Both the position numbers and the translations under genes were made by a program. A model generated the notes under the pieces. It was not told the origin of the DNA. It saw only the letters and a list, made by a program, of their open reading frames with translations, and did no database searches. Of a stretch of 64,000 nucleotides of DNA, positions 14,910-35,416 are shown in pieces. Where the stretch lies: contig NZ_JBICTY010000010.1 of NCBI RefSeq assembly GCF_043197895.1, forward strand, positions 829 through 64,828, written 5' to 3'. The stretch is from Cryptosporangium sp. NPDC048952. Lineage in GTDB: Bacteria > Actinomycetota > Actinomycetes > Mycobacteriales > Cryptosporangiaceae. Each line of letters begins with the position of its first letter. The stretch's first letter is position 1.

Positions 14910-14946
14910 CGTTCTCCTCAAAGCGCCGAAGGCGCGCTTGTCTTTG

Positions 14947-15060
14947 CTTGAAACCCGGAGCCCGCTCAGGGCGACGCTGCCAGTCGAGCGCGAATCCGCC
15001 GCGTATAGGTGAATACTCAAGGGTTCGCGCTCGCCTGGCAGGGTCGCCCTGAGCGGGCCG
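14947..15060. promoter_or_regulatory. Long intergenic inverted repeat (about 25-bp arms gagcccgctcagggcgacgctgccag / ctggcagggtcgccctgagcgggc) between the binding-protein and permease genes
   Basis: Arms read directly; position typical of intra-operon mRNA stability / decoupling hairpins in ABC importer operons. Confidence 0.6.
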
Positions 15061-15064
15061 CCCA

Positions 15065-16273: not shown

Positions 16274-16311
16274 GAAATACCTGCTTTCTCCGTACAGGGG
16301 GGTGGGAGGAG

Positions 16312-17352
16312 TCAGGAGGAGGTAGCGGCCAACTCGCCGCTCACCGGCAGCGCGTGGGCGCTCTGCCAGCGCAGTCGAACGCGGTCACCGCGGTTGATGC
16401 CGCTCTCGCCTTCGTTCTGCCGTTGCACGACCAGCTGCCCGCCGGCGTCGAGATCGACGACGTACCGGGTGGACGCGCCGAGGTAGATCTCTTCGAGGAC
16501 CGTGCCCTCGGGCCCTTCCCCGGACTCCGACATCGGGGAGATCCGGATCTTCTCCGGCCGGATGCTCACCATGTCGGGCGATCCGAGCAGCGCGGTCGCG
16601 GTGGCACCCGACAACAGGTTGGTGACACCGACGAACCCGGCGACGAAGTCGGTCTCGGGGTGCTCGTACAGCCCGGCCGGGGACGCGATCTGCTCGATCC
16701 GTCCATCTCGGACGACCGCTACGCGGTCGCTCATCGTCAGCGCCTCGTCCTGGTCGTGGGTGACCAGCACGAACGTGATGCCGACGTTTCGCTGCAGGGC
16801 TTTCAGTTCGACTTGCATTTCGAGTCGCAGGGCCCGGTCGAGCGCGCCGAGCGGTTCGTCGAGCAGGAGCACTTTGGGACGGTTCACCAGCGCGCGGGCG
16901 AGCGCGACCCGCTGCCGCTGACCGCCGGAGAGCTGGCCGGGGCGGCGATCGCCGAAGCCGGTGAGGCGCACGGACTCCAGCGCTTCGAGCGCGCGCTGAC
17001 GGCGCTCCTTCTTGCCCACACCCTTGACGCGCAGCCCGTACTCGACGTTGCCGAGGACGGAGAGGTGCGGGAACAGCGCGTAGTCCTGGAAGACGGTGTT
17101 GACGTCCCGGTCGTACGGCGGCCGGGTGGTGACGTCCGTGCCCTGCAGCAGTACCTGACCCGCGGTGGGTAGCTCGAAGCCGGCGATCATCCGCAGCAGC
17201 GTCGTCTTGCCCGAGCCGGACGGTCCGAGCAGGGAGAAGAACTCACCGTCGGGGATCTCCAGGTCGATGCCGGCGACGGCTTCGACGTCACCGAACGTCT
17301 TGCGCAGCCCGCGCAGTTCGATGGCCGGGGCATTGTCCCTGGTGGGGTTCAA
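16312..17352 (-). CDS. potA: ABC transporter ATP-binding protein, PotA-like
   Basis: Walker A GPSGSGKTT; signature LSGGQRQRVALARAL; Walker B LLLDEPLGALD; C-terminal TOBE-like domain. Confidence 0.85.
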   Translation of the reverse strand: MNPTRDNAPAIELRGLRKTFGDVEAVAGIDLEIPDGEFFSLLGPSGSGKTTLLRMIAGFELPTAGQVLLQGTDVTTRPPYDRDVNTVFQDYALFPHLSVLGNVEYGLRVKGVGKKERRQRALEALESVRLTGFGDRRPGQLSGGQRQRVALARALVNRPKVLLLDEPLGALDRALRLEMQVELKALQRNVGITFVLVTHDQDEALTMSDRVAVVRDGRIEQIASPAGLYEHPETDFVAGFVGVTNLLSGATATALLGSPDMVSIRPEKIRISPMSESGEGPEGTVLEEIYLGASTRYVVDLDAGGQLVVQRQNEGESGINRGDRVRLRWQSAHALPVSGELAATSS

Positions 17353-17497: not shown

Positions 17498-18256
17498 ATG
17501 GGCACGCGACGGTTCGACCGTGGGCCGCGATCCGCGCTGTTCGCGCCGCTGGAGAGCTTGAGCCGCACGGAGTTGGTGACCCATCGGCTGGCCGACGCGA
17601 TCATGCTCGGCCTGCTCATTGATGCCGAGCAACTGCCGAGCGAGACCGCCCTCGCCACCGGTTTCGGTGTGTCCACAGTGACAGTGCGTGAGGCGTTGAC
17701 CGCGCTGAGACAGCGAGGGTTGATCGAGACCCGGCGCGGGCGGGGTGGGGGGAGTTTTGTCCGGTCGCCGGCCGACGACCCGACCGCGGTGCTGCGCGAG
17801 CGGCTGCGTCAGTACAGCCCCGGCACGTTGCGTGACATCGGTGACCATTACGCGGCGATCAGCGGAGCGGCGGCCGAGCTCGCGGCCGAGCGGGCCGACA
17901 GCGAGGACGTGGCGCGGCTGCGGAGTGCGGTGGTCACAGTGGAGACGGCGGCCCGCCCGGGAGATCGCCGCCGCGCCGACGGCCACTTCTCGATCGAGGT
18001 GGCGGCCGCCGCACAGTCGGCCCGGCTGACCAGGGCGGAGATGGCTCTGCAGACCGAGGTCGGGCCGCTGTTCTGGCTCGTGCTCGAGGACGATGCGGCG
18101 CACGCGCTGGCCGTCGAGCGGTGCCGTGCGCTGACGGCTGCCGTGGTGCTGGGTGACGGTCAGCGAGCGCGTGCCGCCGCCCAGGAACGGATTGCCGACG
18201 CCGTCAACAGCCTGACCGAACGTCATCTGGAATTGGTTCGTCAGCCACGGGGGTAA
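17498..18256 (+). CDS. GntR-family transcriptional regulator (FadR/FCD C-terminal domain)
   Basis: HTH LPSETALATGFGVSTVTVREAL; divergent from potA. Confidence 0.75.
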   Translation: MGTRRFDRGPRSALFAPLESLSRTELVTHRLADAIMLGLLIDAEQLPSETALATGFGVSTVTVREALTALRQRGLIETRRGRGGGSFVRSPADDPTAVLRERLRQYSPGTLRDIGDHYAAISGAAAELAAERADSEDVARLRSAVVTVETAARPGDRRRADGHFSIEVAAAAQSARLTRAEMALQTEVGPLFWLVLEDDAAHALAVERCRALTAAVVLGDGQRARAAAQERIADAVNSLTERHLELVRQPRG

Positions 18257-18266
18257 AGGTCCCGGG

Positions 18267-19031
18267 TTGCGGGATGATCCGGGAATGGATCGCACGCGAA
18301 CCGCAGACCCGACCGCAACAGCGGCGGTGGTGTCGGTGGTGCGCAGAACGATCGAGGAAGCGTTCGACGGTGTGGCCGCGTTACGCCGGGACGTCGAGAG
18401 CATGTTTTCGGGGAGCACCGCCGCCGGTGGTACCGCGGTCGGCCGGGACGATCTCGCCGAGCTGTACCCCACGCTCACCGCCCCACTGCGGACGCCGGGC
18501 GGGCTCGCGAAGGGTGCGGGCTTCGTCGCGGCGCCGCACCTTCTCGTCGACGCGCCGTGGTGGCTGGAGTGGTGGACGCGGGAGCCGTCCGGAGAGCCGA
18601 GCCGCCTGGTCGTCGACGTCGATCCGGACGGCGAGAACTTCTACGACTACACGACGCTGCCCTGGTACCGGGATCCGCAGCGCACCGGGCAGCGGACCGT
18701 CACCGGCCCGTACGTCGACTACCTCTGCACCGACGACTACACGCTCACGTTCACCGCGGCGGTGCGCGACGGGGACGCGTTCCTGGGGGTCGTCGGCAGT
18801 GACCTGGACGTGGGCCTGTTCGAGGCGATCGCACTCCCGTCGCTGCGCGCGGTGCCGTGCACGGCGACGCTGATCAACGCCCACGGGCGGGTGATCGCGT
18901 CGAACTCACCGCAGCGCCGAGGTGGCTCGCTGGTCCGCGACGTGGACGTGGCCGCGCTGTGGGCGAACGGTTCGACGGCGGGAACCCGCCTCGTGCGCTG
19001 CGGGGACTTCCCGATCGGGCTGATGCTCTAA
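18267..19031 (+). CDS. Cache-like (sCache) sensor-domain protein without signal peptide or output domain; TTG start 11 nt after the gntR stop (alternative ATG at 18285)
   Basis: LPWYRDP and YVDYLCTDDYTLTFTAAVRDGDAFLGVVGSDLDV resemble Cache ligand-binding fold. Confidence 0.45.
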   Translation: MRDDPGMDRTRTADPTATAAVVSVVRRTIEEAFDGVAALRRDVESMFSGSTAAGGTAVGRDDLAELYPTLTAPLRTPGGLAKGAGFVAAPHLLVDAPWWLEWWTREPSGEPSRLVVDVDPDGENFYDYTTLPWYRDPQRTGQRTVTGPYVDYLCTDDYTLTFTAAVRDGDAFLGVVGSDLDVGLFEAIALPSLRAVPCTATLINAHGRVIASNSPQRRGGSLVRDVDVAALWANGSTAGTRLVRCGDFPIGLML

Positions 19032-20681: not shown

Positions 20682-21254
20682 ATGGACCGGGCCTCTGCGC
20701 AGACCACTTATCTACTGGTCGACGGCGAGAACATCGACGCCACGCTGGGCAGCAACATCTTCGGCGGGCGCCGACCCAGCCCGCAGGAGCGCCCGCGCTG
20801 GGAGCGCGTCCGCGACTTCGCGAGCGAGACCTGGGACCGCCCCGTCAAGGCCCTGTTCTTCCTGAACGCGAGCTCCGGCCAGTTGCCGCTGCCGTTCATC
20901 CAGGCGTTGCTCGCGCTGGACTACCAGCCGATCCCGCTCTCCGGCAGCACCGGTGAAAAGGTCGTCGACATCGGTATCCAGCGGACGCTCGACGCACTGG
21001 TCGACCGCCCCGGCGACGTGCTCCTCGCCAGCCACGACGGCGACTTCTTCGACCAGATCGAGCGTCTCCTCGACGGCAACCGGCGCGTGGGGCTGCTCGG
21101 GTTCCGCGAGTTCGTCAACTCCCGGTTCACCGAGCTGACCGCCGAGGGCCTGGAGATCTACGACCTCGAGGACGACGTCCGCTGCTTCAACGCCCGCCTG
21201 CCGCGCGTCCGCATCATCAATATCGACCGTTTCGACCCGCTCCCGTACCTCTGA
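20682..21254 (+). CDS. NYN-domain (LabA-like PIN nuclease fold) protein
   Basis: YLLVDGENIDATLG...ASHDGDF matches the NYN acidic core. Confidence 0.65.
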   Translation: MDRASAQTTYLLVDGENIDATLGSNIFGGRRPSPQERPRWERVRDFASETWDRPVKALFFLNASSGQLPLPFIQALLALDYQPIPLSGSTGEKVVDIGIQRTLDALVDRPGDVLLASHDGDFFDQIERLLDGNRRVGLLGFREFVNSRFTELTAEGLEIYDLEDDVRCFNARLPRVRIINIDRFDPLPYL

Positions 21255-21348: not shown

Positions 21349-21960
21349 GTGGGTGGTCTGTTAGATGCGGCCTTCGGATTCCCGGCGGTGCTGTTCACTT
21401 TCGCGCTCGTCGTCGTGGTCGGGTACTGGGTCCTGGTGATCGTCGGCGGCCTCGGCGTCGACGCGCTCGACGGTGACGGCGGCGCGGAGGCAGGTGGCGC
21501 GCACGGTGCTCTCAGCGCCATCGGCCTCGGCGGGGTGCCGGTCAGCGTCTCGCTGTCGGCGCTGATCGGGGTCGCCTGGTTCGGCACGTTCGTGGGGAGC
21601 GCGGTGCTCGGCAACGACGGATTCCTCATCGACGTCGGTCTGCTGGCCGGCGCGCTCGTCGTCGCATGGTTAGCGACCCGGCTGGTGACCCGCCCGTTGC
21701 GTCGATTGTTCCCCGACGAGAAACTGCCGTCCCGATCGGATTTCCTCGGCTCGACGTGCGTGATCCGCACCGGCCGCGTCGACGCGAAATTCGGCCAGGC
21801 GGAAGTGACAGCTGACGATGGATCGTCGGCACTTGTGCAGGTGCGCCAAACTGGCGAGTACGAACTCAGCGCCGGCGAAACAGCGCTGATCTACGACTAC
21901 GACACGGACGGCGAATTCTTCTTCGTCATGCCGTTCAATGCTGCCCACCCCCGGAGCTAG
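21349..21960 (+). CDS. NfeD-like membrane protein (YqiJ/YuaF type; C-terminal OB-fold)
   Basis: Three TM helices then soluble domain VIRTGRVDAKFGQAEV...ALVQVR; 8-nt gap to the flotillin gene. Confidence 0.7.
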   Translation: MGGLLDAAFGFPAVLFTFALVVVVGYWVLVIVGGLGVDALDGDGGAEAGGAHGALSAIGLGGVPVSVSLSALIGVAWFGTFVGSAVLGNDGFLIDVGLLAGALVVAWLATRLVTRPLRRLFPDEKLPSRSDFLGSTCVIRTGRVDAKFGQAEVTADDGSSALVQVRQTGEYELSAGETALIYDYDTDGEFFFVMPFNAAHPRS

Positions 21961-21968
21961 GTAAATCT

Positions 21969-24056
21969 ATGGATGCTGTGGCCCTCGGTGCCGGCGTGCT
22001 GATCGCCGTCGCCTTGATCGTTGTTCTCGGCCTCGCGATAATGGTGAGCCGACTGTTCAAGAAAGTTGAACAGGGCAAGGCCCTGATCGTCTCGAAGGTC
22101 AAAAAGGTCGACGTGACCTTCACCGGCGCGACGGTCATCCCGGTGCTCCACCGCGCCGAGGTCATGGACATCTCGGTGAAGACGATCGAGATCGCCCGTA
22201 CCGGCCGCGAGGGCCTGATCTGCCGCGACAACATCCGGGCGGACATCCGGATCACGTTCTTCGTCCGGGTCAACAAGACCGTCGAGGACGTCATCAAGGT
22301 GGCCCAGGCGATCGGTACGGCACGCGCGAGCAACCAGGACACGCTCCAGGAACTGTTCAACGCGAAGTTCTCCGAAGCGCTCAAAACCGTGGGTAAGCAG
22401 CTCGATTTCGTCGACCTCTACACGAAGCGGAATGAATTCCGCGATCAGATCATCGCGGTCATCGGTACCGACCTCAACGGTTACAGCCTCGAAGACGCCG
22501 CGATCGACTACCTCGAGCAAACGCCGCTGAGCCAACTCGACCCGGCGAACATTCTCGACGCGCAGGGTATTCGCAAGATCACCGAGCTGACCGCGATCGA
22601 GCACGTGCGCACGAACGAATTCCAGCGCACCGAAGAAAAAGAGATCACGCGCCAGAACGTCGACGCCAAGGAAGCAGTTCTCGAGCTGCAGCGCCGGCAG
22701 GCCGACGCCGAGATCAAGCAGCGGCGTGACATCGAGACCAACCGCGCCCGCGAAGAGGCCGAGATCTCCCGCGTCCAGGCGGAGGAGCGGCTCAAGGCGC
22801 AGAAGGCGCACCTGATCACCGACGAAGCGCTCGGCATCCAGAACCAGAACAAGGACCGGGAGATCGCGGTCGCGGAGAAGAACCGTGAGCGTGTCCTGGC
22901 GATCGAGACCGAGCGGATCGAGAAGGACCGCCTGCTCGAGGTCATCGCCCGGGACCGGGAGACGCAGCTCTCCACGATCAACAAGGACAAAGAGGTCGAG
23001 GTCGAGAAGCGCGCGATCGCCGACATCGTCCGGGAGCGCATCGCGGTCGAGAAGACCGTCGCCGAGCAGGAAGAGAACATCAAGAAGCTGCGCGCGGTCG
23101 AAGAGGCCGAGCGGATGCGCCAGACGCTGATCATCCAGGCCGAGGCCGAGGCGCAGGAGAAGCTGGTCAAGGACATCAAGGCAGCCGAGGCCGCCGAGCA
23201 GGCCGCGCAGCACCTGGCCCGCGAGGCGCTGACGCTGGCCGAGTCGCGCCAGCGGGCCGCCGAGCTCGACGCCGCCGCGAAGATCCGGCTCGCCGAGGCG
23301 ATCAAGGCCGAGGCCGCCGCGCCGGGCCTGGCCGCGGTGCAGGTCCGCGAGGCCGAGGCCGACGCGATCGAGAAGAGCGGTCTCGCCGAGGCGGTCGCCG
23401 ACCGCGAGAAGGGCCTGGCCCAGGCGCTCGTCGCGAAGGAGAAGGGCCTCGCGGAGGCCGCCATCGCGAAGGAGAAGGGCCTCGCCGAGGCCGAGGCGCT
23501 GCGCGAGAAGCTGAAGGGCGAGGCCGAAGGTCTCACCGACAAGGCCGCCGCGATGGCCGCCCTCGACGACGCCACCCGCCAGCACGAGGAGTACCGACTG
23601 CGCCTCGAGGCCCAGAAGGAGATCCAGCTGGCGAACATCGACGTCCAGCGGCAGATCGCCGAGGCGCAGGCCTCGGTGCTCTCCACCGGCCTGCAGAACG
23701 CCGACATCGACATCGTCGGTGGCGACACCGTGTTCTTCGACCGGCTGATGAGCTCGATCGCGTTCGGCAAGGGCGTCGACAAGTTCGTGGAGCACTCCGA
23801 GGTGGCCGGCACGCTGACCAAGCCCTGGCTGGACGGGTCGGCGAGCTTTACCGACGACCTGAGCCGGATCCTCGGGTCGGTGGACTCCGCCGACATCCGC
23901 AACCTGACGATCTCCGCACTGTTGATGAAGATGATCAAGGGCGGCGGCCCGGACTCCGCGAAGCTCGGTGAGCTGCTCGGCTCGGCCCGCCAGCTCGGCA
24001 TCGCCGACACCCCGCTGTCCCAGCTGACCGCCCTGAACGGCGTCACGAAGGCGTGA
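21969..24056 (+). CDS. floT: Flotillin-family protein (SPFH/band-7 domain plus long EA-rich coiled coil; YqiK/FloT-like)
   Basis: N-terminal TM; SPFH core (GKALIVSKVKKVDVTFTGATVIPVLHRAEVMDISVKTIEI); extended A/E/K-rich coiled coil; C-terminal flotillin tail. Confidence 0.85.
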   Translation: MDAVALGAGVLIAVALIVVLGLAIMVSRLFKKVEQGKALIVSKVKKVDVTFTGATVIPVLHRAEVMDISVKTIEIARTGREGLICRDNIRADIRITFFVRVNKTVEDVIKVAQAIGTARASNQDTLQELFNAKFSEALKTVGKQLDFVDLYTKRNEFRDQIIAVIGTDLNGYSLEDAAIDYLEQTPLSQLDPANILDAQGIRKITELTAIEHVRTNEFQRTEEKEITRQNVDAKEAVLELQRRQADAEIKQRRDIETNRAREEAEISRVQAEERLKAQKAHLITDEALGIQNQNKDREIAVAEKNRERVLAIETERIEKDRLLEVIARDRETQLSTINKDKEVEVEKRAIADIVRERIAVEKTVAEQEENIKKLRAVEEAERMRQTLIIQAEAEAQEKLVKDIKAAEAAEQAAQHLAREALTLAESRQRAAELDAAAKIRLAEAIKAEAAAPGLAAVQVREAEADAIEKSGLAEAVADREKGLAQALVAKEKGLAEAAIAKEKGLAEAEALREKLKGEAEGLTDKAAAMAALDDATRQHEEYRLRLEAQKEIQLANIDVQRQIAEAQASVLSTGLQNADIDIVGGDTVFFDRLMSSIAFGKGVDKFVEHSEVAGTLTKPWLDGSASFTDDLSRILGSVDSADIRNLTISALLMKMIKGGGPDSAKLGELLGSARQLGIADTPLSQLTALNGVTKA

Positions 24057-27000
24057 CCGGCCCCCTGACCGCCGGCGGCGCGGAGGCCAGCGCCGCCGGC
24101 ACGACCGCCGCCGGCCCGGCGGGCGTGGGCGGCGGGCCGGCTGACGTACCAGCCGGCCCGGCCACGCCCGGGCTCGATGCGGGCACCTACGACGTCCTCC
24201 GGAGCCGCCTGAAGACGCAGGCAACGGAGCTGGCGCAGCACGTCGAGGCGCTCAACACGCAGCGGCTCGACGTCTTCGGCGGCACCGAACTACGCCTCAC
24301 CGGCACCGCGCAGATCCGCACCGAGCACAACTGCGTCCCGCGCGACATCACGTCGGTCGGCGACCGGCTGCTCTTCGGCTACAACGCCTACCTGGGCATG
24401 AAGCCGGAGACGACGGTCGACGACGTGTTCTCCGTGCACCGCCTGGTACGCGACAACGACCGGCTCAGCTTCGAGCAACTCGAGCACGACCCGCTCCTCA
24501 CCGACGAGCAGTTCACCAAGGACCTCGGCGAGCAGTACCGGTATTTCCGGGAGAGCTCGCTGCTGCAGCTGCGCCGGCTCGACCCGCTGCTGCTCGCGGT
24601 GTTCCGCACCAGCCCGAACGCCGACGACAACCGCGTGCTCCGCTGGCGCCTCAACCTGGACGGCACGGCGAACTACGTCGACAACAAGGGCGAACGGGAC
24701 CACACGTTCCCCGCCAAGCAGGACTTCGACTGGGTCGAGACCACCCGCACCGACCACGTCCTCGGCCGGCACCCGCACATCTCGATCCTCGGCGTGGTGT
24801 TCGTCGAGACGATCGGCGGCGACCTCACGATCAAGGTCGAGAACAACACCGAGTCCGGCGAGGGCATCTACACCGAGCCGGTCAAGGAACCGCTGCAGAG
24901 CCTCGCCGACGCCGACGTCAGCTACGCCCGCATCGGCCCCCTGATCCTGCTCCGGATCCGTCCGTACAAAGAGGACGCCTGGCGCTACCTGATCTTCAAC
25001 ACGCTCACCCGCGACGTCCTGCGGCTGGACGGCATCGGGCAGGCCTGCCAGCGCCTGCCCGAGGACCAGGGCATCGTCGTGCCCGGCGGCTACTACCTGT
25101 CGACAGGCGTCCACCGCGTTTTCGACCAGGACACTTCCGGCCTGGAGTTCGAGCGTGTCATCCGCTCGACGAACGGCGAGGACGTCCTCTACGTCTTCCA
25201 CAGCCGGACCGACGGCCGCTACCTGCTGCTCCCGTACAACGTCATCCGCAAGGAGATCGCGAACCCGATCCCCTGCCACGGTTACGCGTTCTACGACGAC
25301 GGCACGCTGGTCGTGCTGCGCGCCACGAACGCCGAGCCGACTCGCGTCCACCAGATGCAGGTGTGGCAGACGCCGTACGTGTCGGACACGTACGCAGCAG
25401 CGCAGCCGGTGGGCACCGGACCGCTGGAGCGGATCGGCAACGCCGATCTGGTCCGCGGGATCTCCGACCTGCTGTCGGTCGCCCGGATGGCCGAGGACAC
25501 GACGCCCACCGAAGCGGCGTTCGACGCGCTGATCGGCGCCTGCCGCCGCGCCGTCGACCAGTACCACTGGCTCGACGAGAACGGCCTGGGTACCCCGCTC
25601 GCGCAGCTGCGGCGCACCGCCGAGCAGGTCCGCGAGGAGTTCGAGAAGGTCCAGAGCCTCACCGCGCAGGCCGCGGACGCGCTCGCCGCCGCTGTCGCCG
25701 AGGTCGGCACGCTGATCCGGGACGCGCGGACGGGTTCGCCGACCACGGCAGAGGAGTGGGCCGCCCAGCTCGCCGCGCTGCGCCGGGCGCAGGGTCGGCT
25801 GGTCGGGCTGCGCGAGGTCCGGTACGTCGACCAGACCGCCGTCGACGCACTCGCCGCGGAACTGACCGACGAGCTCGCGGCCGCCGGCCGCCGGGCGGTC
25901 GAGTTCCTCCGCGGCGAGGGTGCTTTCGACAGCTACGAACAACAAGCCGAACTGCTCACTGCCGACGCCGACGCGATCGCGTCCGTGGCGGAGGCGGCAC
26001 CGCTGGCCGAACGGCTCGACCAGCAGTCCGACGGGCTGGCCGTCGTCACCGAGGTCCTCACGTCGCTGGACATCGAGGACGCGACCGTCCGCACCGAGCT
26101 GCTCGCCCGCATCGGCGGTGTGCTCGGCAGCATCAACCGCGCCCGGGCGACGCTCGACGCGCGGCGCCGCGAGCTGCTCGCGGTGGAGGGACGTGCCCAG
26201 TTCGCGGCGGAGTTCGCGCTGCTCGGGCAGGCAGTGACCGGTGGACTGGCGGTCGCCGACTCCCCCGAGGCGTGCGACGAGCAGCTCGCGAAGCTGATGG
26301 CTCAGGTCGAAGGGCTCGAGTCCCGGTTCGGGCAGTTCGACGAGTTCCTCGCGTCGCTCGCGGAGAAGCGCGAGGACGTCTACGAGGCGTTCTCGGCGCG
26401 GAAGCAGGCGCTGCTCGACGACCGGCAGCGGCGGGCGAACCGGTTGGCTGCGAGTGCCGACCGGATCCTCGGCAGCGTGCAGCGCCGGGCCGTTCAGCTG
26501 GCCACACTCGAGGACGTCAACACGTACTTCGCGACCGACCCGATGGTCGGCACGCTGCGCGGCCTGATCGGCGAGCTGCGGACGCTCGGCGACGCGATCC
26601 GCGCGGAGGAGTTCGAGCGGCGGCTGTCGACCGCGCGTCAGGAGGCCGGGCGGGCGCTGCGGGACCGCACCGACCTGTACGACGGCGACACGATCCGGCT
26701 CGGACGGCACCGGTTCGCGGTGAACACGCAGGCAGCTGAGCTGACGCTCGTGCCGCACGAGGGCAAACCGGTGTTCGCGATCACCGGCACCGACTACCGC
26801 GCCCCGGTCACCGACCCGACGTTCGCGTCCACCGCCGAGTTCTGGGACCAGCCCCTGGTCTCCGAAGACGCCACCCTCAGCCGCGTGGAGTACCTGGCCG
26901 GCACCCTCCTCCTCTCGGGTGTTCGTGACCCTGCACAGGTGCAGACCGCTGCTGCCGAGCGGTACGAGGAGGGGTACGAGCGCGGCGTCCACGATGCGGA

Positions 27001-28933
27001 TGCGGCGGTGGTTCTCGGCGCGCTGGTCGAGCTGTACGACGAGGCCGGGCTGCTCCGGTACTCGCCCGGGGCGCGGGCGGCGGCGCAGCTGTTCTGGGCG
27101 TACGGCGTCGAGGACCGGAAACAGTGGGAGGTGCGCGCCCGGTCGCTGACCCGCGCGAACGAGATCTTCGGGGCGGGCGACGGGCTCGAAGCGCTGACCG
27201 CCGAGCTCGCGGCCGAGATGACCGAGGCCGAGCAGCCGCTGCTCGCAGCGGAATACCTCATCGCCGAGCTCGCGCACGAACCGTTCGGGTTCGTCACCGG
27301 CCCCCGGGCGGCGGAACTGGTGGCCGGCTTCGAACGAGCCCTCGGCCCCAACGCGTCCACTCTGGAAGACGACCTCAAGGAGCTCGGCGACGACGTCACC
27401 GCCCGGCACCGGCTGATCAACGCGTGGATGTCGGCCTACTCGCCCGAAGCCACCGAGGACCGCGACGAGGCCGTCGCGTACCTGCTCATCGGCGACGACG
27501 TCCCCCGCCGCGACTCCGCCGCGCAGCTCGAAGCCACCGTCGACGGCCTCCTGTCGGCACACCCCCGCATCACCGGCCGGACGCTGACCGTGCGCCTCGA
27601 CGACGTACTGGCCCGCGTCCGCCGATTCCAGGACGTCCGCGTCCCGGCGTTCCGCGCCTACCAGAAGCAGCGCGGCACCGTGATCGCGGAAGAACGCGCC
27701 CGGCTCCGCCTCAACGAGCTCGAAGCAGGGGTGCTCAGCTCGTTCGTCCGCAACCGCCTCATCGACCAGGTCTACCTCCCGCTGATCGGCGACAACCTCG
27801 CCAAGCAGCTCGGCACCGTGGGCCCGGACTCACGCACCGACCAGATGGGGTTGCTGCTCCTGCTGTCCCCACCCGGCTATGGCAAGACGACGCTGATGGA
27901 GTACGTCGCGTCCCGGCTCGGCCTGGTCTTCGTCAAGGTCAACGGCCCGGCGCTGGGCCACGACGTGACGTCGCTCGACCCGGAGCAGGCACCGAACGCG
28001 GCCGCGCGGCGCGAGGTCGAGAAGATCACGTTCGCGTTGGAGCTGGGGAACAACACACTGCTCTATCTGGACGACATCCAGCACACGTCGCCCGAGCTGC
28101 TCCAGAAGTTCATTTCCCTGTGTGACGCGACCCGCCGGATGGACGGGGCCAGCAAGACGTACGACCTGCGTGGTAAGCGCTTCGCGGTGTGCATGGCCGG
28201 CAACCCGTACACCGAGTCGGGGCAGCGGTTCCAGGTGCCGGACATGCTGGCCAACCGAGCCGACGTCTGGAACCTCGGTGACGTGCTGTCCGGGCGCGAG
28301 GAGCTGTTCGCGCTGAGCTTCCTGGAGAACACGCTGACGTCGAACCCGGTGCTCGCGCCGCTCTCGACCGGTGCGCCGGCCGACGTCGAGCTGCTGGTGC
28401 GGCTGGCGCGCGGGGACGCCACGGTGCGGCCGGACCAGTTGGAGAAGACGTACTCGTCCGTGGAGCTGGAGCAGATCCTGGCCGTGCTGCGTCACCTGCT
28501 GCGCGTGCAACATGTGGTTCTACGGAACAACGAGGCGTACATCGCGTCGGCGGCGCAGGCGGATTCGTCGCGTACCGAGCCGCCGTACCGGCTGCAGGGT
28601 TCGTACCGGAACATGAACAAGATGGCGCAGCGGGTGCTGCCGGTGATGAACGACGCCGAGCTCGAGGCCGTGATCGACGACCACTACGTCGGGGAGGCCC
28701 AGACGCTCGCGGCGGACGCCGAGGCGAACCTGCTGAAGCTGGCGGAGCTGCGGGGTGTGCTCACTCCGGAGGCATCCGCCCGCTGGTCCGCCGTGAAGGA
28801 AGGGTTCCTCCGCGAGCGGGCGCTGGGCGGCTCCGACGACCCCCTGGGCCGGGCGGTCGGCGCCGTGGGCCTACTCGCGGATCGGGTCCGGGAGGTCGAG
28901 CAGGCCATCGTCCGACTTGGTCCGCGCTCGTAG
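24053..28933 (+). CDS. Giant (1626 aa) protein with a C-proximal AAA+ ATPase domain of MoxR/AAA_5 type, flotillin-associated
   Basis: Start overlaps the flotillin stop. Walker A LLLSPPGYGKTTLMEY; Walker B LLYLDDIQHT; sensor-1-like CMAGNPYTE; about 1200 aa of mostly helical upstream sequence. Confidence 0.75.
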   Translation: MTGPLTAGGAEASAAGTTAAGPAGVGGGPADVPAGPATPGLDAGTYDVLRSRLKTQATELAQHVEALNTQRLDVFGGTELRLTGTAQIRTEHNCVPRDITSVGDRLLFGYNAYLGMKPETTVDDVFSVHRLVRDNDRLSFEQLEHDPLLTDEQFTKDLGEQYRYFRESSLLQLRRLDPLLLAVFRTSPNADDNRVLRWRLNLDGTANYVDNKGERDHTFPAKQDFDWVETTRTDHVLGRHPHISILGVVFVETIGGDLTIKVENNTESGEGIYTEPVKEPLQSLADADVSYARIGPLILLRIRPYKEDAWRYLIFNTLTRDVLRLDGIGQACQRLPEDQGIVVPGGYYLSTGVHRVFDQDTSGLEFERVIRSTNGEDVLYVFHSRTDGRYLLLPYNVIRKEIANPIPCHGYAFYDDGTLVVLRATNAEPTRVHQMQVWQTPYVSDTYAAAQPVGTGPLERIGNADLVRGISDLLSVARMAEDTTPTEAAFDALIGACRRAVDQYHWLDENGLGTPLAQLRRTAEQVREEFEKVQSLTAQAADALAAAVAEVGTLIRDARTGSPTTAEEWAAQLAALRRAQGRLVGLREVRYVDQTAVDALAAELTDELAAAGRRAVEFLRGEGAFDSYEQQAELLTADADAIASVAEAAPLAERLDQQSDGLAVVTEVLTSLDIEDATVRTELLARIGGVLGSINRARATLDARRRELLAVEGRAQFAAEFALLGQAVTGGLAVADSPEACDEQLAKLMAQVEGLESRFGQFDEFLASLAEKREDVYEAFSARKQALLDDRQRRANRLAASADRILGSVQRRAVQLATLEDVNTYFATDPMVGTLRGLIGELRTLGDAIRAEEFERRLSTARQEAGRALRDRTDLYDGDTIRLGRHRFAVNTQAAELTLVPHEGKPVFAITGTDYRAPVTDPTFASTAEFWDQPLVSEDATLSRVEYLAGTLLLSGVRDPAQVQTAAAERYEEGYERGVHDADAAVVLGALVELYDEAGLLRYSPGARAAAQLFWAYGVEDRKQWEVRARSLTRANEIFGAGDGLEALTAELAAEMTEAEQPLLAAEYLIAELAHEPFGFVTGPRAAELVAGFERALGPNASTLEDDLKELGDDVTARHRLINAWMSAYSPEATEDRDEAVAYLLIGDDVPRRDSAAQLEATVDGLLSAHPRITGRTLTVRLDDVLARVRRFQDVRVPAFRAYQKQRGTVIAEERARLRLNELEAGVLSSFVRNRLIDQVYLPLIGDNLAKQLGTVGPDSRTDQMGLLLLLSPPGYGKTTLMEYVASRLGLVFVKVNGPALGHDVTSLDPEQAPNAAARREVEKITFALELGNNTLLYLDDIQHTSPELLQKFISLCDATRRMDGASKTYDLRGKRFAVCMAGNPYTESGQRFQVPDMLANRADVWNLGDVLSGREELFALSFLENTLTSNPVLAPLSTGAPADVELLVRLARGDATVRPDQLEKTYSSVELEQILAVLRHLLRVQHVVLRNNEAYIASAAQADSSRTEPPYRLQGSYRNMNKMAQRVLPVMNDAELEAVIDDHYVGEAQTLAADAEANLLKLAELRGVLTPEASARWSAVKEGFLRERALGGSDDPLGRAVGAVGLLADRVREVEQAIVRLGPRS

Positions 28934-29631: not shown

Positions 29632-30654
29632 ATGCGTCCCTGGAACACCGAAATGGCTGGTCAGCTGCATCGCGACACGATCGAATCGAACCTGCTCAGG
29701 GGTAATCCCCTGGGTGATCCCCACGAGCGTCCACTGTGGGTCTACACGCCGCCGGGCTACTCGTCGGACACGCCCTTGCCGGTCGTGTACGTGATTCAGG
29801 GCTACACCGGCCAGATCGACATGTGGAACAACCGCTCGCCGTACCGGCAGACGTTCCCGGAGAACGTCGACGCACTGTTCGCCTCGGGTGAGACGCCCGG
29901 GTGCATCGTCGTCTTCGTGGACGCGTGGACCACGTACGGCGGCTCCCAGTTCGTGGACTCCCCCGGCACCGGGCCGTACCACTCGTACCTCTGCGACGAG
30001 GTCGTGCCGTGGGTCGACGCCCGGTACGCGACGCTGGCGCGCCCGGAGTCGCGGGCGATCAGCGGCAAGTCGTCGGGCGGGTTCGGGGCGATGATCACGC
30101 CGATGCTGCGCCCGGACCTGTTCGGCGCGCTCGCCACGCACGCGGGCGACGCCCTCTACGAGTACTGCTACGTGAGCGGATTCGCGAAGGCGGTGCGGCT
30201 CCTCCGTGAGTACGACGGGGACATCCAGCGGTGGTGGGCCGATTTCCAGTCGCGGACGTCGTTCACGAAGGAGGCCGACGGCGAATTGCTGATCCTGCTC
30301 GGCTGCACCGCCTGCTTCTCCGCCGACGAGGACGGCACCCCGCAGCTGCCGTTCGACCCGATCACCGGCGTGCTGATCCCGGAGCGCTGGCAGCGATGGC
30401 TGGACTGGGACCCGGTGCGGATGATCGACACGTACGCCGACGCGCTGCTGTCGCAACGCTCGATCTGGATCGACGCCGGCACCCGCGACGAGTGGTACCT
30501 CGACCTCGGCGCCCAAGCGTTCCACGCGGGCCTCAAGCGGATCGGCGTCCCCGACGACCGCATCCACTTCGAGCTCTTCGACGCCACCCACGGCGGCATC
30601 GACTACCGCTACCCCCAGGCCCTCAAATGGCTGGCCGAACGCCTGGAACGCTAG
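29632..30654 (+). CDS. Esterase-family alpha/beta hydrolase (enterochelin-esterase / PF00756-like)
   Basis: PLPVVYVIQGYTGQ...AISGKSSGGFGA (GxSxG nucleophile elbow). Confidence 0.65.
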   Translation: MRPWNTEMAGQLHRDTIESNLLRGNPLGDPHERPLWVYTPPGYSSDTPLPVVYVIQGYTGQIDMWNNRSPYRQTFPENVDALFASGETPGCIVVFVDAWTTYGGSQFVDSPGTGPYHSYLCDEVVPWVDARYATLARPESRAISGKSSGGFGAMITPMLRPDLFGALATHAGDALYEYCYVSGFAKAVRLLREYDGDIQRWWADFQSRTSFTKEADGELLILLGCTACFSADEDGTPQLPFDPITGVLIPERWQRWLDWDPVRMIDTYADALLSQRSIWIDAGTRDEWYLDLGAQAFHAGLKRIGVPDDRIHFELFDATHGGIDYRYPQALKWLAERLER

Positions 30655-32804
30655 GCGGGCTCGAGGCGGTAGATGGTGATCTGGCCGGCGCGGTAGTAGA
30701 CCGACCAGTGGGGTGAGGCGTCGAGGGCCGCGCGCAGCGCCTCGACCGAGCCGCGGGGCAGGTTGCCGAAGTACTCGGCGGTTCGCTGCATCAGCGGTGT
30801 GATCACCAGGAACGTCTCCGTGCCGCCGTACGACGCCGCCCAGCTCTCGATCGCCGGGAGCTGGTCGGCGTCGAGCACGAGGTGTTTGAACGACGGCTCG
30901 TCGGTGATCGACGGGTCGACGCTGCGGCCCGGGTTGAGGTCGCCGTAGTCCGCCGTGAGCCGCGCCGGGAACGCGGGCGCGAGCATCGTCATCGTCGACC
31001 CGGCGGGGGCCTGCGTCTCGAGGTAGCGCGCCGCCCGGATGTCGGCCGGCGGGACGACGTGCAGCGCGTACTGTCCCTGCAACCCCTGCAGCGCCGCTAT
31101 CGCGAGCAGCGCGAACACCACGCCGGAAGCAATACCCCAGCGCCGCGACCCCGCCCACCACGACGCGGCGAGCATCGCGCACCACGGCACCGAGAACAGG
31201 TACACCCGGTAGATCGCCTCACCGCCGTAGCTCTGCAGGAACAGCAGCAGGAACGGCGTGAACCCGAGCGCGAACGGGATGACGATCCGCCCGAGCCCAC
31301 GGCGGTGCCGCCACCCGACGACCAGCGCCGCGAGCCAGACCGCCACCGACAGCCCCCGGGCGACGAGCGCCGAGAACTCCTGCGCCCGGGTCCCCCACCC
31401 GCTCGTCGTGCCGGACGCGTTCTTGAACAGGTCGAACCCGTCGAACAGGTTGTACTGACTTTCGACCCCGCCCATCCGCGGCAGGAAATACCCACCCGCG
31501 ATCGCGGCCAGCGCGATCACCAGCCAGTTCGGTCGGATCAGACCGACGATCGTCAGTACGCCGACGCCGAACAGCAGCAGGTACGGGGTGAGCTGGTGCG
31601 CCGCGGTGATCGCCGCGAACACCAGCGCCACGACGACGAGCACCGGCCACCGCGGCCGGTCCCGTACCGGCGGGGCGTCGCGCACGAGCAGCTGACGCAG
31701 CCGGTTGAGCCGTCCGGCGGCCCGCGACCCGGGCAGCCCCCGGCAGCCGTGCATCAGCAGCGCGAAGAACCCCAGGCTCAGGGCGTACGCGTAGGCCTGC
31801 GGGGAGAAGTAGTTCTGGTCGACCCAGAGCGAGCAGACGAACAGGAACACCGCGAGGTACACGGCCCGGACGTCCCGGTTCAGTCCCCGCACGATCGCGG
31901 CGATCAACAGCGCGTCGATCAGCCCGAAGTACGGCGTCGACCAGCCCACGAACCGGATCGACGCCACCCCGGCGACACTGGAGAGCTGCGCGGTGGCGGC
32001 GAACAGCGCCGGCCAGCGCTGGTAGATGTCGTCCGGGTCGACGACCTGGCCGTAGCGCTGGACGAGCTCGACGACGCCGACGTGCTTGTACACCCACGGG
32101 TACTCGGGCACCGGCACGAGCAGCGGCGCGGTCGCCCACACCAGCAGTCCCATCGCCCCGATGCCGGCGAGCAGCACGAGCGTGCGGGCCCGCCCGAACA
32201 GCTCGATGCCGAACCCGACCCCCACCATTCCGATCGCGGCGACGAACGGAACTCCCAGGCCCCACGTCAGACCGAACTCGGTGATCCCGTTCGGGTCGGC
32301 CCGCAGCACGGTGACCAGCCACAGCCCCAGCGCGACGACGAACAGCGTCGGGGTGAGCACGGGAGCCACCCCCGTGGGCGGCGCGTCCGTGCCGACCCGG
32401 TCGAGGACGTCGGTCCGGCCCATCACGTCCGGCCTGCGTAGCCGGGCCAGCGCGACAGCTGCCGTCAAAGCCAGCAGTGCGGCGGTCGCCGCGAACGGGT
32501 GCCACGCCCGGAACCACACCATCGACGCCGCGCTCAGCCCGGTGAGCGCCAGGCTGAACGTGATCGTGAGCGCGCTCGCCACTACCTGGTCGGCGATCCG
32601 CAGGTGGCTGACGATCGCGGCGCCGGGGCCGGCCGTGAAGAACGCCAGCAGCAGCACCAGCCGGATCGGCCCGTCCGGGATCAGCAGCGCGACGGTCCCG
32701 GCCACCACTGTTGCCACGGCGACCGCCGCCAGCCCGGTTTCGGACGTCGGGGTGCCGAGTGCGGTGCTGCCGCGGGGCACCGACGAGAGCAGACGGACGG
32801 TCAC
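30651..32804 (-). CDS. 717-aa polytopic membrane protein, candidate GT-C-type glycosyltransferase or polymerase of the adjacent glycan cluster
   Basis: About 16 predicted TM helices with a large C-terminal soluble domain; GTG start; 18 nt downstream of the flippase gene. Confidence 0.55.
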   Translation of the reverse strand: MTVRLLSSVPRGSTALGTPTSETGLAAVAVATVVAGTVALLIPDGPIRLVLLLAFFTAGPGAAIVSHLRIADQVVASALTITFSLALTGLSAASMVWFRAWHPFAATAALLALTAAVALARLRRPDVMGRTDVLDRVGTDAPPTGVAPVLTPTLFVVALGLWLVTVLRADPNGITEFGLTWGLGVPFVAAIGMVGVGFGIELFGRARTLVLLAGIGAMGLLVWATAPLLVPVPEYPWVYKHVGVVELVQRYGQVVDPDDIYQRWPALFAATAQLSSVAGVASIRFVGWSTPYFGLIDALLIAAIVRGLNRDVRAVYLAVFLFVCSLWVDQNYFSPQAYAYALSLGFFALLMHGCRGLPGSRAAGRLNRLRQLLVRDAPPVRDRPRWPVLVVVALVFAAITAAHQLTPYLLLFGVGVLTIVGLIRPNWLVIALAAIAGGYFLPRMGGVESQYNLFDGFDLFKNASGTTSGWGTRAQEFSALVARGLSVAVWLAALVVGWRHRRGLGRIVIPFALGFTPFLLLFLQSYGGEAIYRVYLFSVPWCAMLAASWWAGSRRWGIASGVVFALLAIAALQGLQGQYALHVVPPADIRAARYLETQAPAGSTMTMLAPAFPARLTADYGDLNPGRSVDPSITDEPSFKHLVLDADQLPAIESWAASYGGTETFLVITPLMQRTAEYFGNLPRGSVEALRAALDASPHWSVYYRAGQITIYRLEPA

Positions 32805-32822
32805 CCAGTCATTCTGTACCTA

Positions 32823-34010
32823 TTACTGCAACAAAGTCCGGATTCGGATCACCAGCCCGGGCAGCAGGACCGCCGCCGTCAGCGCCTGTGCGCCGACATA
32901 CGCCAGTCCGACGCCCGGCAGCCCCAGCCGTGGCAGGAGCACCACCGCACCACCGAGGAACACGACAGCGGTGACGGCCTGGACGAACACGGCCGGCCAG
33001 AGCCGGTTCACCAGGATCGCCAGCGCGCAGTAGACGATGACAACAGCGGTGAACGGAAAGCTCAGCGCCGCCACCCGCAGCAGCGTGCCGCCGCCGTCCG
33101 CGAATGCCGTGCCCTGCACGAGCAGCAGCGTCGGGCCGAGCACCACCAGGCCGAGCGTGCCGGCGACCGCGACCGCCGTCACCAGGCCGAGGATCCGGCG
33201 CAGGTGGTGGGCCAGGCCGTCCGGGTCGCGGCCGACCTGGGCGATGAACGACATCATGATGTTCCAGACCAGCGTCTGCAGCGTGATGACGATCAGCCAC
33301 GGCACCGCGAAGTAGGCGTTGGCCACCGAGCCGGCCACGTGCACGACCAGCACCGGCGGGATCAGCGTGACGACGTTGCCGACCAGGTTGTTGACGTACT
33401 CCGCGGCCACGAAGTTGCCCAGCTGCCGCGGGCCGGGCAACTGCGATTCGCCGACGCTGCGCGCCGGGGCGAGGCGAGCGAAGATCACGAACGTGAGCAC
33501 GACGGCCGCGACCGCCGCGGGAATGCACCAGGCGGCCTCGATGCCCAGCTCGGAGCCGGTGGCGACCAGCGCCACGAGCAGTACGAGCTTGGCGCTGGAG
33601 GTCGCCACCTGCTTGGCCACGACCGTGCCGGCCCGGCCGAACGCGGTGAGCACGCCGTCCTGCACGTAGAAGAGCGCGTAGACGGTCACGCCGAGCACGA
33701 AGCCGAGCCAGTCCCAGCGTCCGAGGCCGAAGCCGTGGCCCGGGCCGAGCAGCAGGTAGGTGCCGCCGAACAGCACCGAGCCGGCGAGGATCCCGGCGAA
33801 GCCGGAGCCCAGGAACGCACCTGTGCGGTGCCCCGCCTGGGGCAGGAACCGCACGAACACCGACGAGAGGTTGAGCTGCGCGATCCCGCTGACCAGTGCG
33901 ATCGCCGAGACGGTCGCGTTGCCGTGCCCGACCTCGTCGGTCGGGTACAGGTGTGCGGCGGCGACCCAGAAAAGCATGTTCAACGCCGACGCCAGCACTG
34001 TCGACGACAT
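32823..34010 (-). CDS. Wzx-like polysaccharide flippase (polysaccharide-biosynthesis-protein family)
   Basis: 12-14 TM helices, N-terminus LRQASALMSSTVLASALNMLFWVAAAHLY typical of PF01943/PF13440. Start set at the internal ATG (ORF opens at 34163 but would overlap the GT2 gene). Confidence 0.6.
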   Translation of the reverse strand: MSSTVLASALNMLFWVAAAHLYPTDEVGHGNATVSAIALVSGIAQLNLSSVFVRFLPQAGHRTGAFLGSGFAGILAGSVLFGGTYLLLGPGHGFGLGRWDWLGFVLGVTVYALFYVQDGVLTAFGRAGTVVAKQVATSSAKLVLLVALVATGSELGIEAAWCIPAAVAAVVLTFVIFARLAPARSVGESQLPGPRQLGNFVAAEYVNNLVGNVVTLIPPVLVVHVAGSVANAYFAVPWLIVITLQTLVWNIMMSFIAQVGRDPDGLAHHLRRILGLVTAVAVAGTLGLVVLGPTLLLVQGTAFADGGGTLLRVAALSFPFTAVVIVYCALAILVNRLWPAVFVQAVTAVVFLGGAVVLLPRLGLPGVGLAYVGAQALTAAVLLPGLVIRIRTLLQ

Positions 34011-34087
34011 CAGCGCCGACGCTTGACGCAGCACCGTGGACGACCTCCACCTGGACACCGCACTCCGAGCTACGGGAGGGGCGATCG

Positions 34088-35407
34088 TCACCGGAGACCG
34101 ACCGGGGTCTTCGTGGCCGCACCAGCCGGCGCGGAGGCCCGCAGTCCTCGGAGGTAACGCCACGGGCCGGCGAGCATGCCTCGCCGGTTCGCGGCGAACA
34201 GCTCGGTCGGGAAGTCCTTCCGGACCGTGCCGACCCGGACGCTGTCGTTGCTCGTCAGGTCCTTCACCGCGGTCGGCACCAGCCGGAGCAGCCGCACGAG
34301 CCGACGCGGGTCGTCCCGGATCAGCGCGGCGTAGAACGCGGTGAGCCCGGCGCCGTACCCGGCCATCTGCGTGCGGAGCCCGTCGAGGTCGGCACGGTGC
34401 ACGTGACGCACCAGCGCCGCCGGGTGGTAAAGCGTGGTCGCCCCGAGGTCGAGCAGCCGGCTGAAGATCAGCGTGTCCTCGCCGCTCTGCGCGGGTGTAC
34501 CGGCACCGAGTGCCTCGTCGAACCCTTTCAACGTGCGCAGGGCGTGCAGACGGAACGCCATGTTGGCCCCGACGCCGAACGCCGGCAGCGGGTAGAGCGG
34601 GCTCTGGGCGGTGTGCGGCCCGAACTCGTCGGGAAGGAACCCGCGGCCCTTGCTGTGGCCGCCGAACTGCTCGAACCAGGCCTGGGCGTCGGTGCGGAGC
34701 TCGGCCGGGACGACGACACCGGACACCGCGACAGCGGCCGGGTTGTCCCCGAAAGCACGGACGATCTCGGCGACCCAGTGCGGGTCGGCGCGGACGTCGT
34801 CGTCGGTCCAGGCGACGATCCGCTCACCGGGTTCGCGGCTCAGCGCGGCGATCGCGGCGTTCCGGGCCCGCGACAGCCCGGGTCGCGCCTCGGCGACGTA
34901 CTCGATCGTCAACCGACCGCGGAACTCCTCGACCACGTGACGCGTGCGGTCGCCGACCGGCGCGTTGTCGACCACCAGGACGTCGAAGCGGTCGAACTCC
35001 TGGTCGGTGAGGCTGATCAGGCAGTCACGCAGCTCGTCGGGGTGCTCCCGGGTGCAGATGACGACGGTGACCGGCGGGGCCAGCTCCAGCGCGCGGGCCC
35101 GCCCGGCCAGGAACGGCGGGGTCGCGGCCAGCGCCGAGAGCGGAATGCCGTCCGGCGTCAGCATGGCGACGTCGATCCGCGCCGCGATCGCATTCCGGCA
35201 CTCCGCCAGGATGCCGTCGAGCAGCGCGGCCGGGCTCAACTCGTCGTCCGACGGCAGGTCCAGCCGCACCATCGCGAGCGGCTCGGTGAACAGCCGGACG
35301 ATCACCCAGGCCGCCTCACGCCGGTGCCCGAGCGTGTCGAAGACGTGGACCGACGGCAGCGGAGCGGACAGCTCGACGTCCAGCACGACGCCGGGGATGC
35401 GACTCAT
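34088..35407 (-). CDS. Family 2 glycosyltransferase
   Basis: VTVVICTREHPDELRDCLISL...VLVVDNAPVGD...WTDDDV (GT-A DxD). Confidence 0.75.
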   Translation of the reverse strand: MSRIPGVVLDVELSAPLPSVHVFDTLGHRREAAWVIVRLFTEPLAMVRLDLPSDDELSPAALLDGILAECRNAIAARIDVAMLTPDGIPLSALAATPPFLAGRARALELAPPVTVVICTREHPDELRDCLISLTDQEFDRFDVLVVDNAPVGDRTRHVVEEFRGRLTIEYVAEARPGLSRARNAAIAALSREPGERIVAWTDDDVRADPHWVAEIVRAFGDNPAAVAVSGVVVPAELRTDAQAWFEQFGGHSKGRGFLPDEFGPHTAQSPLYPLPAFGVGANMAFRLHALRTLKGFDEALGAGTPAQSGEDTLIFSRLLDLGATTLYHPAALVRHVHRADLDGLRTQMAGYGAGLTAFYAALIRDDPRRLVRLLRLVPTAVKDLTSNDSVRVGTVRKDFPTELFAANRRGMLAGPWRYLRGLRASAPAGAATKTPVGLR

Positions 35408-35416
35408 CGTGGTCCT

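Follow-up and report, generated by a model that had tools for sequence, protein, structure and literature searches.

A giant AAA+ ATPase encoded directly after a flotillin-like protein in Cryptosporangium, a candidate remodelling factor of flotillin assemblies

A stretch of 64,000 nucleotides from contig NZ_JBICTY010000010.1 of Cryptosporangium sp. NPDC048952 (Actinomycetota; hereafter the window, G+C content about 70%) carries a giant open reading frame (ORF) that a preliminary description had placed at 24053-28933, and which was confirmed as a coding region for 1626 residues. In our reading, to which we give about an even chance, its product is a cytoplasmic multidomain AAA+ ATPase that belongs to a conserved three-gene cassette and acts as a flotillin-associated remodelling ATPase. 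The synteny of the ATPase gene with genes for a flotillin-like and a YqiJ-like protein is near-obligate, and the C-terminal module of the protein is a complete AAA+ domain in which every nucleotide-site motif is invariant, including an unusual Walker B motif.

A three-gene cassette with a flotillin-like protein

The cassette and the ends of the giant ORF are as follows.

21349..21960, plus strand: YqiJ-like protein of 203 amino acids (aa), with three predicted transmembrane segments and a beta-rich C-terminal part of about 80 aa
21969..24056, plus strand: SPFH/Band-7 flotillin-like membrane-anchored protein, 695 aa (Pfam Band_7 at residues 32-175; NCBI 'SPFH domain-containing protein')
24053..28933, plus strand: giant ORF, 1626 aa plus stop (NCBI 'DNA repair ATPase', annotated as 1602 aa from the GTG at 24125)
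24053..24184, plus strand: low-complexity Ala/Gly/Thr/Pro N-terminus of the giant ORF, first ~45 residues, unconserved, with the NCBI start 24 codons into it

The giant ORF was 100% identical over 99% of its length to a protein of the same strain named 'DNA repair ATPase' by NCBI, whose recorded start lies 24 codons downstream of the ORF start at 24053. The choice between the two candidate GTG starts, 24053 and 24125, is ambiguous: the GTG at 24053 overlaps the TGA stop of the SPFH gene (GTGA), and gaps made up 83% of the first 25 columns of one alignment (A1). The low-complexity N-terminus may not be translated. Pfam matches were obtained for DUF3686 (E = 3.9e-208), DUF7902 (E = 1.5e-27) and AAA (E = 1.1e-05). 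Among the matches listed, PF12458, PF25472 and an AAA-type domain were present in all of the homologues (n = 240/240), the AAA-type domain being PF00004 in all but three of them, which have PF07728 (AAA_5). More than 6,000 sequence clusters were matched in one search, and a phmmer search with residues 1150-1626 against 1.84 billion cluster representatives returned 373 representatives at E <=1e-30. Its DUF3686, DUF7902 and AAA architecture marks the giant protein as an ordinary orthologue in a large family already catalogued.

Gene order was compared in 82 loci, consisting of 80 related contigs (one genome per species) and two further loci obtained by exact look-up; four of the 82 had too little upstream DNA to be judged. 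In 76 of the remaining 78, the gene next upstream of the ATPase encoded a flotillin homologue (44-76% identity); among the 76 were loci from Myxococcus, Corallococcus, delta-proteobacterial, Acidobacteriota, Clostridia and Planctomycetota genomes, and the YqiJ-like gene preceded the flotillin gene in about 60 loci. The ATPase directly follows flotillin across at least six phyla. The cassette occurs in many actinomycete genera (Streptomyces accounts for 33 of the 80 returned loci), with the flotillin about 70% identical from one actinomycete genus to another. No other cluster of flanking ORFs was found in more than 26 of the 82 loci, although spurious ORFs of the high-GC DNA make this clustering noisy; neighbours in the window such as the NYN and DedA genes were not conserved across loci. 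Only the flotillin and YqiJ-like genes were common to the loci, and neither a PspA-like nor a VWA gene was found among the conserved neighbours. Likewise, a CesT/Tir-PspA dyad was absent both from the scanned ORFs of the 17.5-30.7 kb part of the window and from the conserved neighbours. The interpretation offered in the preliminary description, which lacked the decisive context of the upstream flotillin and YqiJ-like genes, holds in part.

The flotillin-like protein contains a long Ala/Glu-rich helical region and had no sequence match in the Protein Data Bank (PDB) at E <=0.01. NCBI and UniRef list orthologues of the 203-aa protein as DUF1449, YqiJ family or OB-fold-containing, and on these names it is a putative YqiJ/DUF1449 (NfeD-like) protein; homology to YqiJ/NfeD gave no match in Pfam, NCBIfam or the PDB, either with the single sequence or with a 15-sequence profile. 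Three tandem repeats of about 11 residues, resembling (A/V)AKEKGLAEA, lie in the flotillin helical region (window 23440-23530). The DNA repeats GGCCTCGGCGAGGCC were marked as minus-strand terminator-like hairpins, but almost certainly they are coding repeats in the flotillin gene and no terminators. A scan for promoters and terminators around the operon yielded nothing convincing, and no tRNA or Rfam match was found in the window.

Since the ATPase gene comes right after a flotillin gene in 76 of the 78 loci that could be judged, its product most likely acts on flotillin assemblies and not in DNA repair. A role as a DNA repair ATPase is suggested by names, namely the description of Pfam DUF3686 ('ATPase involved in DNA repair') and the NCBI product name, which most named homologues carry among the matches listed, together with weak RuvB matches confined to Walker A. 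These RuvB matches extend over only some 35 residues at the P-loop; Pfam, Foldseek and profile searches turned up neither a DNA-binding nor a nuclease domain in the giant protein, no repair genes occur in the conserved neighbourhood, where the constant partners are membrane proteins, and literature searches returned no supporting paper. We therefore regard this role as very improbable. The database name is most likely a misnomer that appears to go back to old annotation only, and correcting it removes a misleading label with no visible support.

Of the members examined, the ATPase of Aureibacter tunicatorum (Bacteroidota; locus L001, 8001-12830) diverged furthest (24-30% identity overall with the window protein), and this was the only examined genome in which the ATPase had no adjacent flotillin or YqiJ-like gene. 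Its neighbours there are a PRiA4_ORF3-domain gene and a gene for an HflX-like GTPase.

The AAA+ module and its Walker B motif

The C-terminal part of the giant protein holds the following features.

27725..28372, plus strand: AAA+ alpha/beta core of MoxR/dynein/midasin/McrB type, residues ~1225-1440
27866..27892, plus strand: Walker A, SPPGYGKTT (residues 1272-1280; K1278), with GYGKTT at residues 1275-1280 (27875-27892)
27944..27997, plus strand: conserved loop interrupting helix 2, residues ~1298-1315, PALGHDVTSLDPEQAPNA, candidate helix-2 insert or pore loop
28064..28084, plus strand: Walker B variant YLDDIQH (residues 1338-1344), with D1340 at the Mg2+-binding position and D1341 at the position of the catalytic Glu
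28136..28165, plus strand: two short strands before beta-4, residues ~1362-1371, candidate pre-sensor-1 beta-hairpin (DSSP E263-265 and E270-272, model numbering)
28199..28216, plus strand: sensor 1, GNPYTE (residues 1383-1388; N1384)
28250..28264, plus strand: ANRAD (residues 1400-1404), invariant, with R1402 as candidate arginine finger
28373..28930, plus strand: AAA+ lid and C-terminal helical region, residues 1441-1626
28595..28609, plus strand: QGSYR, candidate sensor 2 (residues 1515-1519)

Conservation was assessed in an alignment of 69 full-length representatives (30-58% overall identity to the query), in which S1272-T1279, D1340, D1341, Q1343, H1344, G1383-P1385, R1402 and Q1515-R1519 were invariant. 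Walker A, DD-IQH, N1384, R1402 and QGSYR were likewise invariant in alignments of 111 and 44 homologues that take in Actinomycetota, Bacteroidota, Verrucomicrobiota, Planctomycetota and Sumerlaeia, the added non-actinobacterial homologues being 32-37% identical to one another. The patterns SPPGYGK[TS], [LVI]DD[IV]QH, NP[YF]T and xNRAD were kept in all of the fetched loci (n = 82/82), and QGSYR in 79 of the 80 loci matched by regular expression. GYGKTT, YLDDIQH and GNPYTE thus stand where the preliminary description had put them, and the orthologues without ATPase motifs that it had named as counter-evidence were not encountered.

Of the features expected of AAA+ domains, the fold (an alpha/beta core with a helical lid) is present, SPPGYGKTT was scored as fitting the Walker A pattern GxxxxGK[ST], and the sensor 1 polar residue, the arginine finger and the sensor 2 Arg correspond to the invariant N1384, R1402 and R1519, whose roles are assigned by position; that of R1402 we take from its position and from analogy with the MoxR-type motif. 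The Walker B pattern hhhhDE departs from expectation, as the motif reads LLYLDD and keeps the acidic pair while the catalytic Glu is not kept. When aligned with a PDB sequence, LYLDDIQHTSP fell on the CLPB Walker B, LFDEVDKAHP, with D1341 at the position of the catalytic Glu. Because D1341 occupies this position and the DD pair is invariant, the non-canonical Walker B already remarked on in the preliminary description is real, and the replacement of the catalytic Glu by Asp, found always, is a fixed family trait.

Structures were modelled with AlphaFold2 (AF2) from 44 diverse sequences, with a mean predicted local distance difference test (pLDDT) value of 85-86. The structure-comparison figures obtained for the AAA+ module were highest for the MoxR proteins CbbQ (16.4) and NorQ (16.3), followed by midasin (14.1), dynein heavy chains (12-14) and McrB (11.7), and did not exceed 12.3 for classic-clade, Clp/Hsp100, RFC and ORC structures; the closest structures are therefore MoxR proteins, as expected of the MoxR-type group (clade 7). 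Secondary structure assignment of the AF2 model by DSSP gave a short helix, a conserved 14-residue loop (residues ~1302-1315) and a second helix, with pLDDT above 90. By the DSSP string, this loop and the two strands before sensor 1 would fit the helix-2 insert and the pre-sensor-1 hairpin that are listed as features of the group (PMC9976466). Pfam backs the MoxR-type assignment weakly: the C-terminal fragment alone gave AAA_5 at 24.3 bits (cutoff 22) and AAA at 28.7 bits, and the match to AAA_3, which we take to be the MoxR model, was not significant (E = 0.13, scoring 12.6 bits where the cutoff is 27). Searched against PDB sequences, neither the protein on its own nor a profile of 69 sequences matched beyond the level of Walker A, and no solved relative turned up by sequence. 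An identity as RuvB or Cdc48 was rejected, the NCBIfam P-loop matches being weak and far below cutoff. No VWA/MIDAS partner gene was found near the ATPase in the window or among the conserved neighbours, the rest of the genome not having been searched for VWA. The AAA+ module is MoxR-type in structure, yet it is not filed as a canonical member of the MoxR family, because Asp stands where MoxR proteins have the catalytic Glu (e.g. NorQ E109), no VWA/MIDAS gene is nearby and the N-terminal extension comprises 1200 residues.

The Asp-Asp pair leaves room for a different reading, in which the protein is a nucleotide-gated switch or scaffold that, by binding ATP and hydrolysing it slowly, would time how a large propeller-rod lattice assembles under flotillin platforms, with no threading or unfolding. 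It agrees with the invariant DD at Walker B, with D1341 at the Glu position, and with the resemblance of the rod and propeller described below to scaffold- and coat-type proteins in Foldseek, at low TM-scores. Against it, sensor 1, the candidate arginine finger and sensor 2 are all invariant, from which it may be argued that hydrolysis matters, and Asp can serve as the general base in other P-loop NTPases. In NorQ, a MoxR protein, the E109Q substitution at the position of D1341 cuts ATPase activity to about 2% (PMC9976466), which speaks for the switch. We consider this alternative unlikely, though the strongest of those weighed here.

Propeller, rod and middle region of the ATPase, and the surrounding genes

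The upstream residues contain the following regions.

24227..25567, plus strand: Pfam DUF3686, residues 59-505, an N-terminal helix followed by a beta-propeller (residues ~81-439)
25421..26674, plus strand: helical rod, residues ~457-874, with helices of up to 58 residues in antiparallel spectrin-like bundles
25922..26173, plus strand: Pfam DUF7902, residues 624-707, inside the rod
26690..27712, plus strand: conserved mixed alpha/beta middle region, residues ~880-1220
26984..27004, plus strand: GVHDxDA motif, residues 978-984, invariant

The AF2 model of the N-region (residues 45-1200; mean pLDDT 85.2) opens with a 30-residue helix before a beta-rich domain of about 27-28 strands (pLDDT ~85-94), predicted to be a propeller, probably with seven blades. 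Foldseek matched it with a probability of about 1.0 to WD40 and other propeller domains, including those of Vps11, prolyl oligopeptidase, a trilobed protease and the clathrin terminal domain. The preliminary description had taken the whole of the upstream ~1200 residues as Ala/Glu/Leu/Arg-rich with long helices; this applies only to the rod (18% Ala, 13% Leu, 11% Arg and 10% Glu), where the models gave helical bundles, and fails for the propeller region, with 6% Ala, and for the mixed alpha/beta middle region. The coiled-coil lever that it suggested may apply to the rod. No known enzymatic domain, which would have told against that description, emerged from the N-region. Membership in the protocoatomer-like propeller-plus-solenoid group, to which Foldseek matches with IFT-A, clathrin and RZZ had pointed, was rejected because the TM-scores were low (0.07-0.12) and the helices, 20-58 residues long and packed in bundles, are unlike short solenoid hairpins.

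The middle region was resolved in the models into a small beta unit (residues 880-918), a helical domain (944-1146) and a second small beta unit (1152-1181), and a 36-residue connecting helix leads from it into the ATPase. Twelve residues of the rod end and middle region were invariant in 110 homologues (D871, G884, F888, N891, E938, R944, G978, H980, D981, D983, R1008 and H1170), and no Pfam family, PDB sequence or fold match accounts for the invariant residues of the middle region. The invariant residues around GVHDxDA may form a metal site or a catalytic site, or may be where the middle region contacts the ATPase ring.

Just upstream of the cassette lies a gene for a 190-aa NYN-domain protein (LabA-like, a predicted RNase; 20682-21254, plus strand), which was conserved next to the cassette in none of the other loci (n = 0/82), and a convergent DedA/VTT gene lies downstream of the ATPase. 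Between the cassette and an ABC transporter, a GntR/FCD regulator gene is followed by one whose 254-aa product carries a partial Cache/PDC sensor domain (17498-19031, plus strand). The transporter is a binding-protein-dependent importer with a PotABCD-like layout (13228-17352, minus strand), consisting of two permeases, an SBP_bac_8 protein and an ABC_tran plus TOBE_2 ATPase, and sits 4 kb from the cassette on the opposite strand. Downstream, a polysaccharide-type cluster (30651-37230, minus strand) encodes a 717-aa polytopic membrane protein with no Pfam match, a 446-aa protein with multiple transmembrane segments, two family-2 glycosyltransferases and a polysaccharide deacetylase.

An anti-phage or conflict system, with the large NTPase sensing invasion and a membrane protein as effector, was weighed in this context. 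A large multidomain ATPase adjoining membrane proteins, the nearby NYN-domain gene and a weak match to IetA (E = 0.0015) would suit such a system. The PADLOC scan for defence systems gave no significant system match, however, the IetA match and that to NYN (E = 0.0026) being both weak and partial; the NYN gene stands next to the cassette in no other locus; and the high conservation of the cassette in many actinomycete genera fits a housekeeping set better than a patchy defence island. On balance a defence function seems improbable.

Proposed function, published precedent and known systems

If the ATPase is indeed a flotillin-associated remodelling factor, its AAA+ domains would assemble into a ring, as those of MoxR proteins do, and the rod would act as a spacer that lets the propellers, at a distance from the ring, dock on flotillin/YqiJ assemblies from the cytoplasmic side or on clients held there. 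ATP binding and hydrolysis, the latter probably slow because Asp replaces the catalytic Glu, would then remodel, disassemble or turn over these assemblies or their clients. The logic would be the same as that of FtsH inside HflK/C cages, of Vps4 on ESCRT-III polymers and of the prohibitin-m-AAA system. A more elaborate version can be imagined, in which six propeller-tipped rods on a ring of MoxR-type modules grip flotillin cages, slow Asp-catalysed turnover opens, closes or recycles them, and the GVHDxDA domain performs a metal-dependent or catalytic step; we regard this picture as speculative and slightly less probable than the switch described above.

Several observations weigh against the proposed remodelling function. 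A physical interaction between ATPase and flotillin is deduced from synteny alone, and two of the 78 loci have no full adjacent flotillin gene, A. tunicatorum having none and a second locus (L074) a match of only 181 aa. The Asp in place of Glu could mean that hydrolysis is very slow, in which case 'remodelling motor' may be too strong a term. The proposed model assigns no part to the conserved GVHDxDA middle domain, and no experiment on any member of the family was found in the literature.

The same gene set, including the YqiJ/YuaF-type protein with three transmembrane segments, was described in a comparative genomic study of phage-shock proteins (Ravi et al., mSystems 2024, PMC11237479), in which it is joined in some bacteria, such as Dokdonia donghaensis DSW-1, to a CesT/Tir-PspA dyad, whereas abbreviated operons that lack PspA have a wider distribution. 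In the authors' view, the abbreviated operons may cooperate with a PspA whose gene lies elsewhere; they also propose roles in the assembly of sub-membrane complexes, and report recurrent links of polyamine genes with PspA/Band-7 operons (PMC11237479). The window agrees with their flotillin operon in domain order (propeller, helical region and C-terminal AAA+ in one protein) and in the adjacent genes for the membrane-anchored Band-7-flotillin and YqiJ/YuaF proteins; it has no CesT/Tir-PspA dyad in the operon and corresponds, by domain description and not by sequence, to the abbreviated form as opposed to the full Dokdonia form.

This precedent raises the possibility that PspA/IM30, the bacterial ESCRT-III protein, is the real substrate, and that the ATPase, like Vps4, would disassemble PspA polymers recruited to flotillin platforms. 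The Dokdonia arrangement, which is shared by some other bacteria, and the suggested use of PspA encoded elsewhere (PMC11237479) both favour it. The conserved neighbourhood contains no PspA-like gene, though, the AAA+ module is of MoxR type and not of the classic-clade Vps4 type, and an MIT-like domain was not detected, so that PspA as substrate appears unlikely, and less so a contender than either the switch or the elaborated cage model.

The operon and the architecture are thus already in print, and the function proposed here is a suggestion drawn from sequence. Literature searches on DUF3686, on PF12458, on 'DNA repair ATPase' with flotillin and on MoxR with flotillin yielded nothing relevant. 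The published account gives no clade assignment, motif analysis or structure for this ATPase (PMC11237479). Our analysis adds the MoxR-type assignment of the AAA+ module, the invariance of DD-IQH at the catalytic position, the division of the N-region into a propeller, a spectrin-like rod and a conserved middle domain, and figures for the tightness of the flotillin linkage. Bacterial flotillins receive wide attention as organisers of membrane microdomains, and the regulation of their assembly is unclear. A large flotillin-linked ATPase with an intact, unusual active site is a candidate regulator of this assembly, and an obvious one, since it is encoded directly after flotillin in at least six phyla and its active site is intact. 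If the more elaborate cage model is true, the protein would be the first dedicated energy-consuming partner of bacterial flotillins, whose function is debated, and a prokaryotic counterpart of the coat-disassembly ATPases.

In comparison with known systems, the MoxR proteins CbbQ, NorQ and RavA have a D-E Walker B with the catalytic Glu, whereas DD-IQH is found here; they are about 270-500 aa long, against 1626 aa with a 1200-aa N-terminal extension, and the VWA/MIDAS partner, whose gene usually adjoins theirs, was not found among the neighbouring genes here. In the HflK/C-FtsH and prohibitin-m-AAA protease systems, an SPFH membrane scaffold is likewise coupled, genetically or physically, to an AAA+ protein (see references 26-27 of PMC2636767). 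FtsH, however, is a classic-clade, membrane-embedded AAA+ protease, while the window ATPase is a soluble protein of MoxR type that lacks a protease domain. The dynein heavy chain and midasin (Rea1/Mdn1) consist of six concatenated AAA+ modules with a stalk that arises from within the ring; the window ATPase has a single module, which must oligomerise, and carries its rod N-terminal to that module. In its Asp-Asp pair it resembles the DnaA/DnaC/IstB-type Walker B (hhhhDD): the catalytic Glu is replaced by Asp in AAA+ proteins of the DnaA/DnaC type, and the Walker B of DnaA reads ..IDDIQF.., nearly the same string as YLDDIQH.

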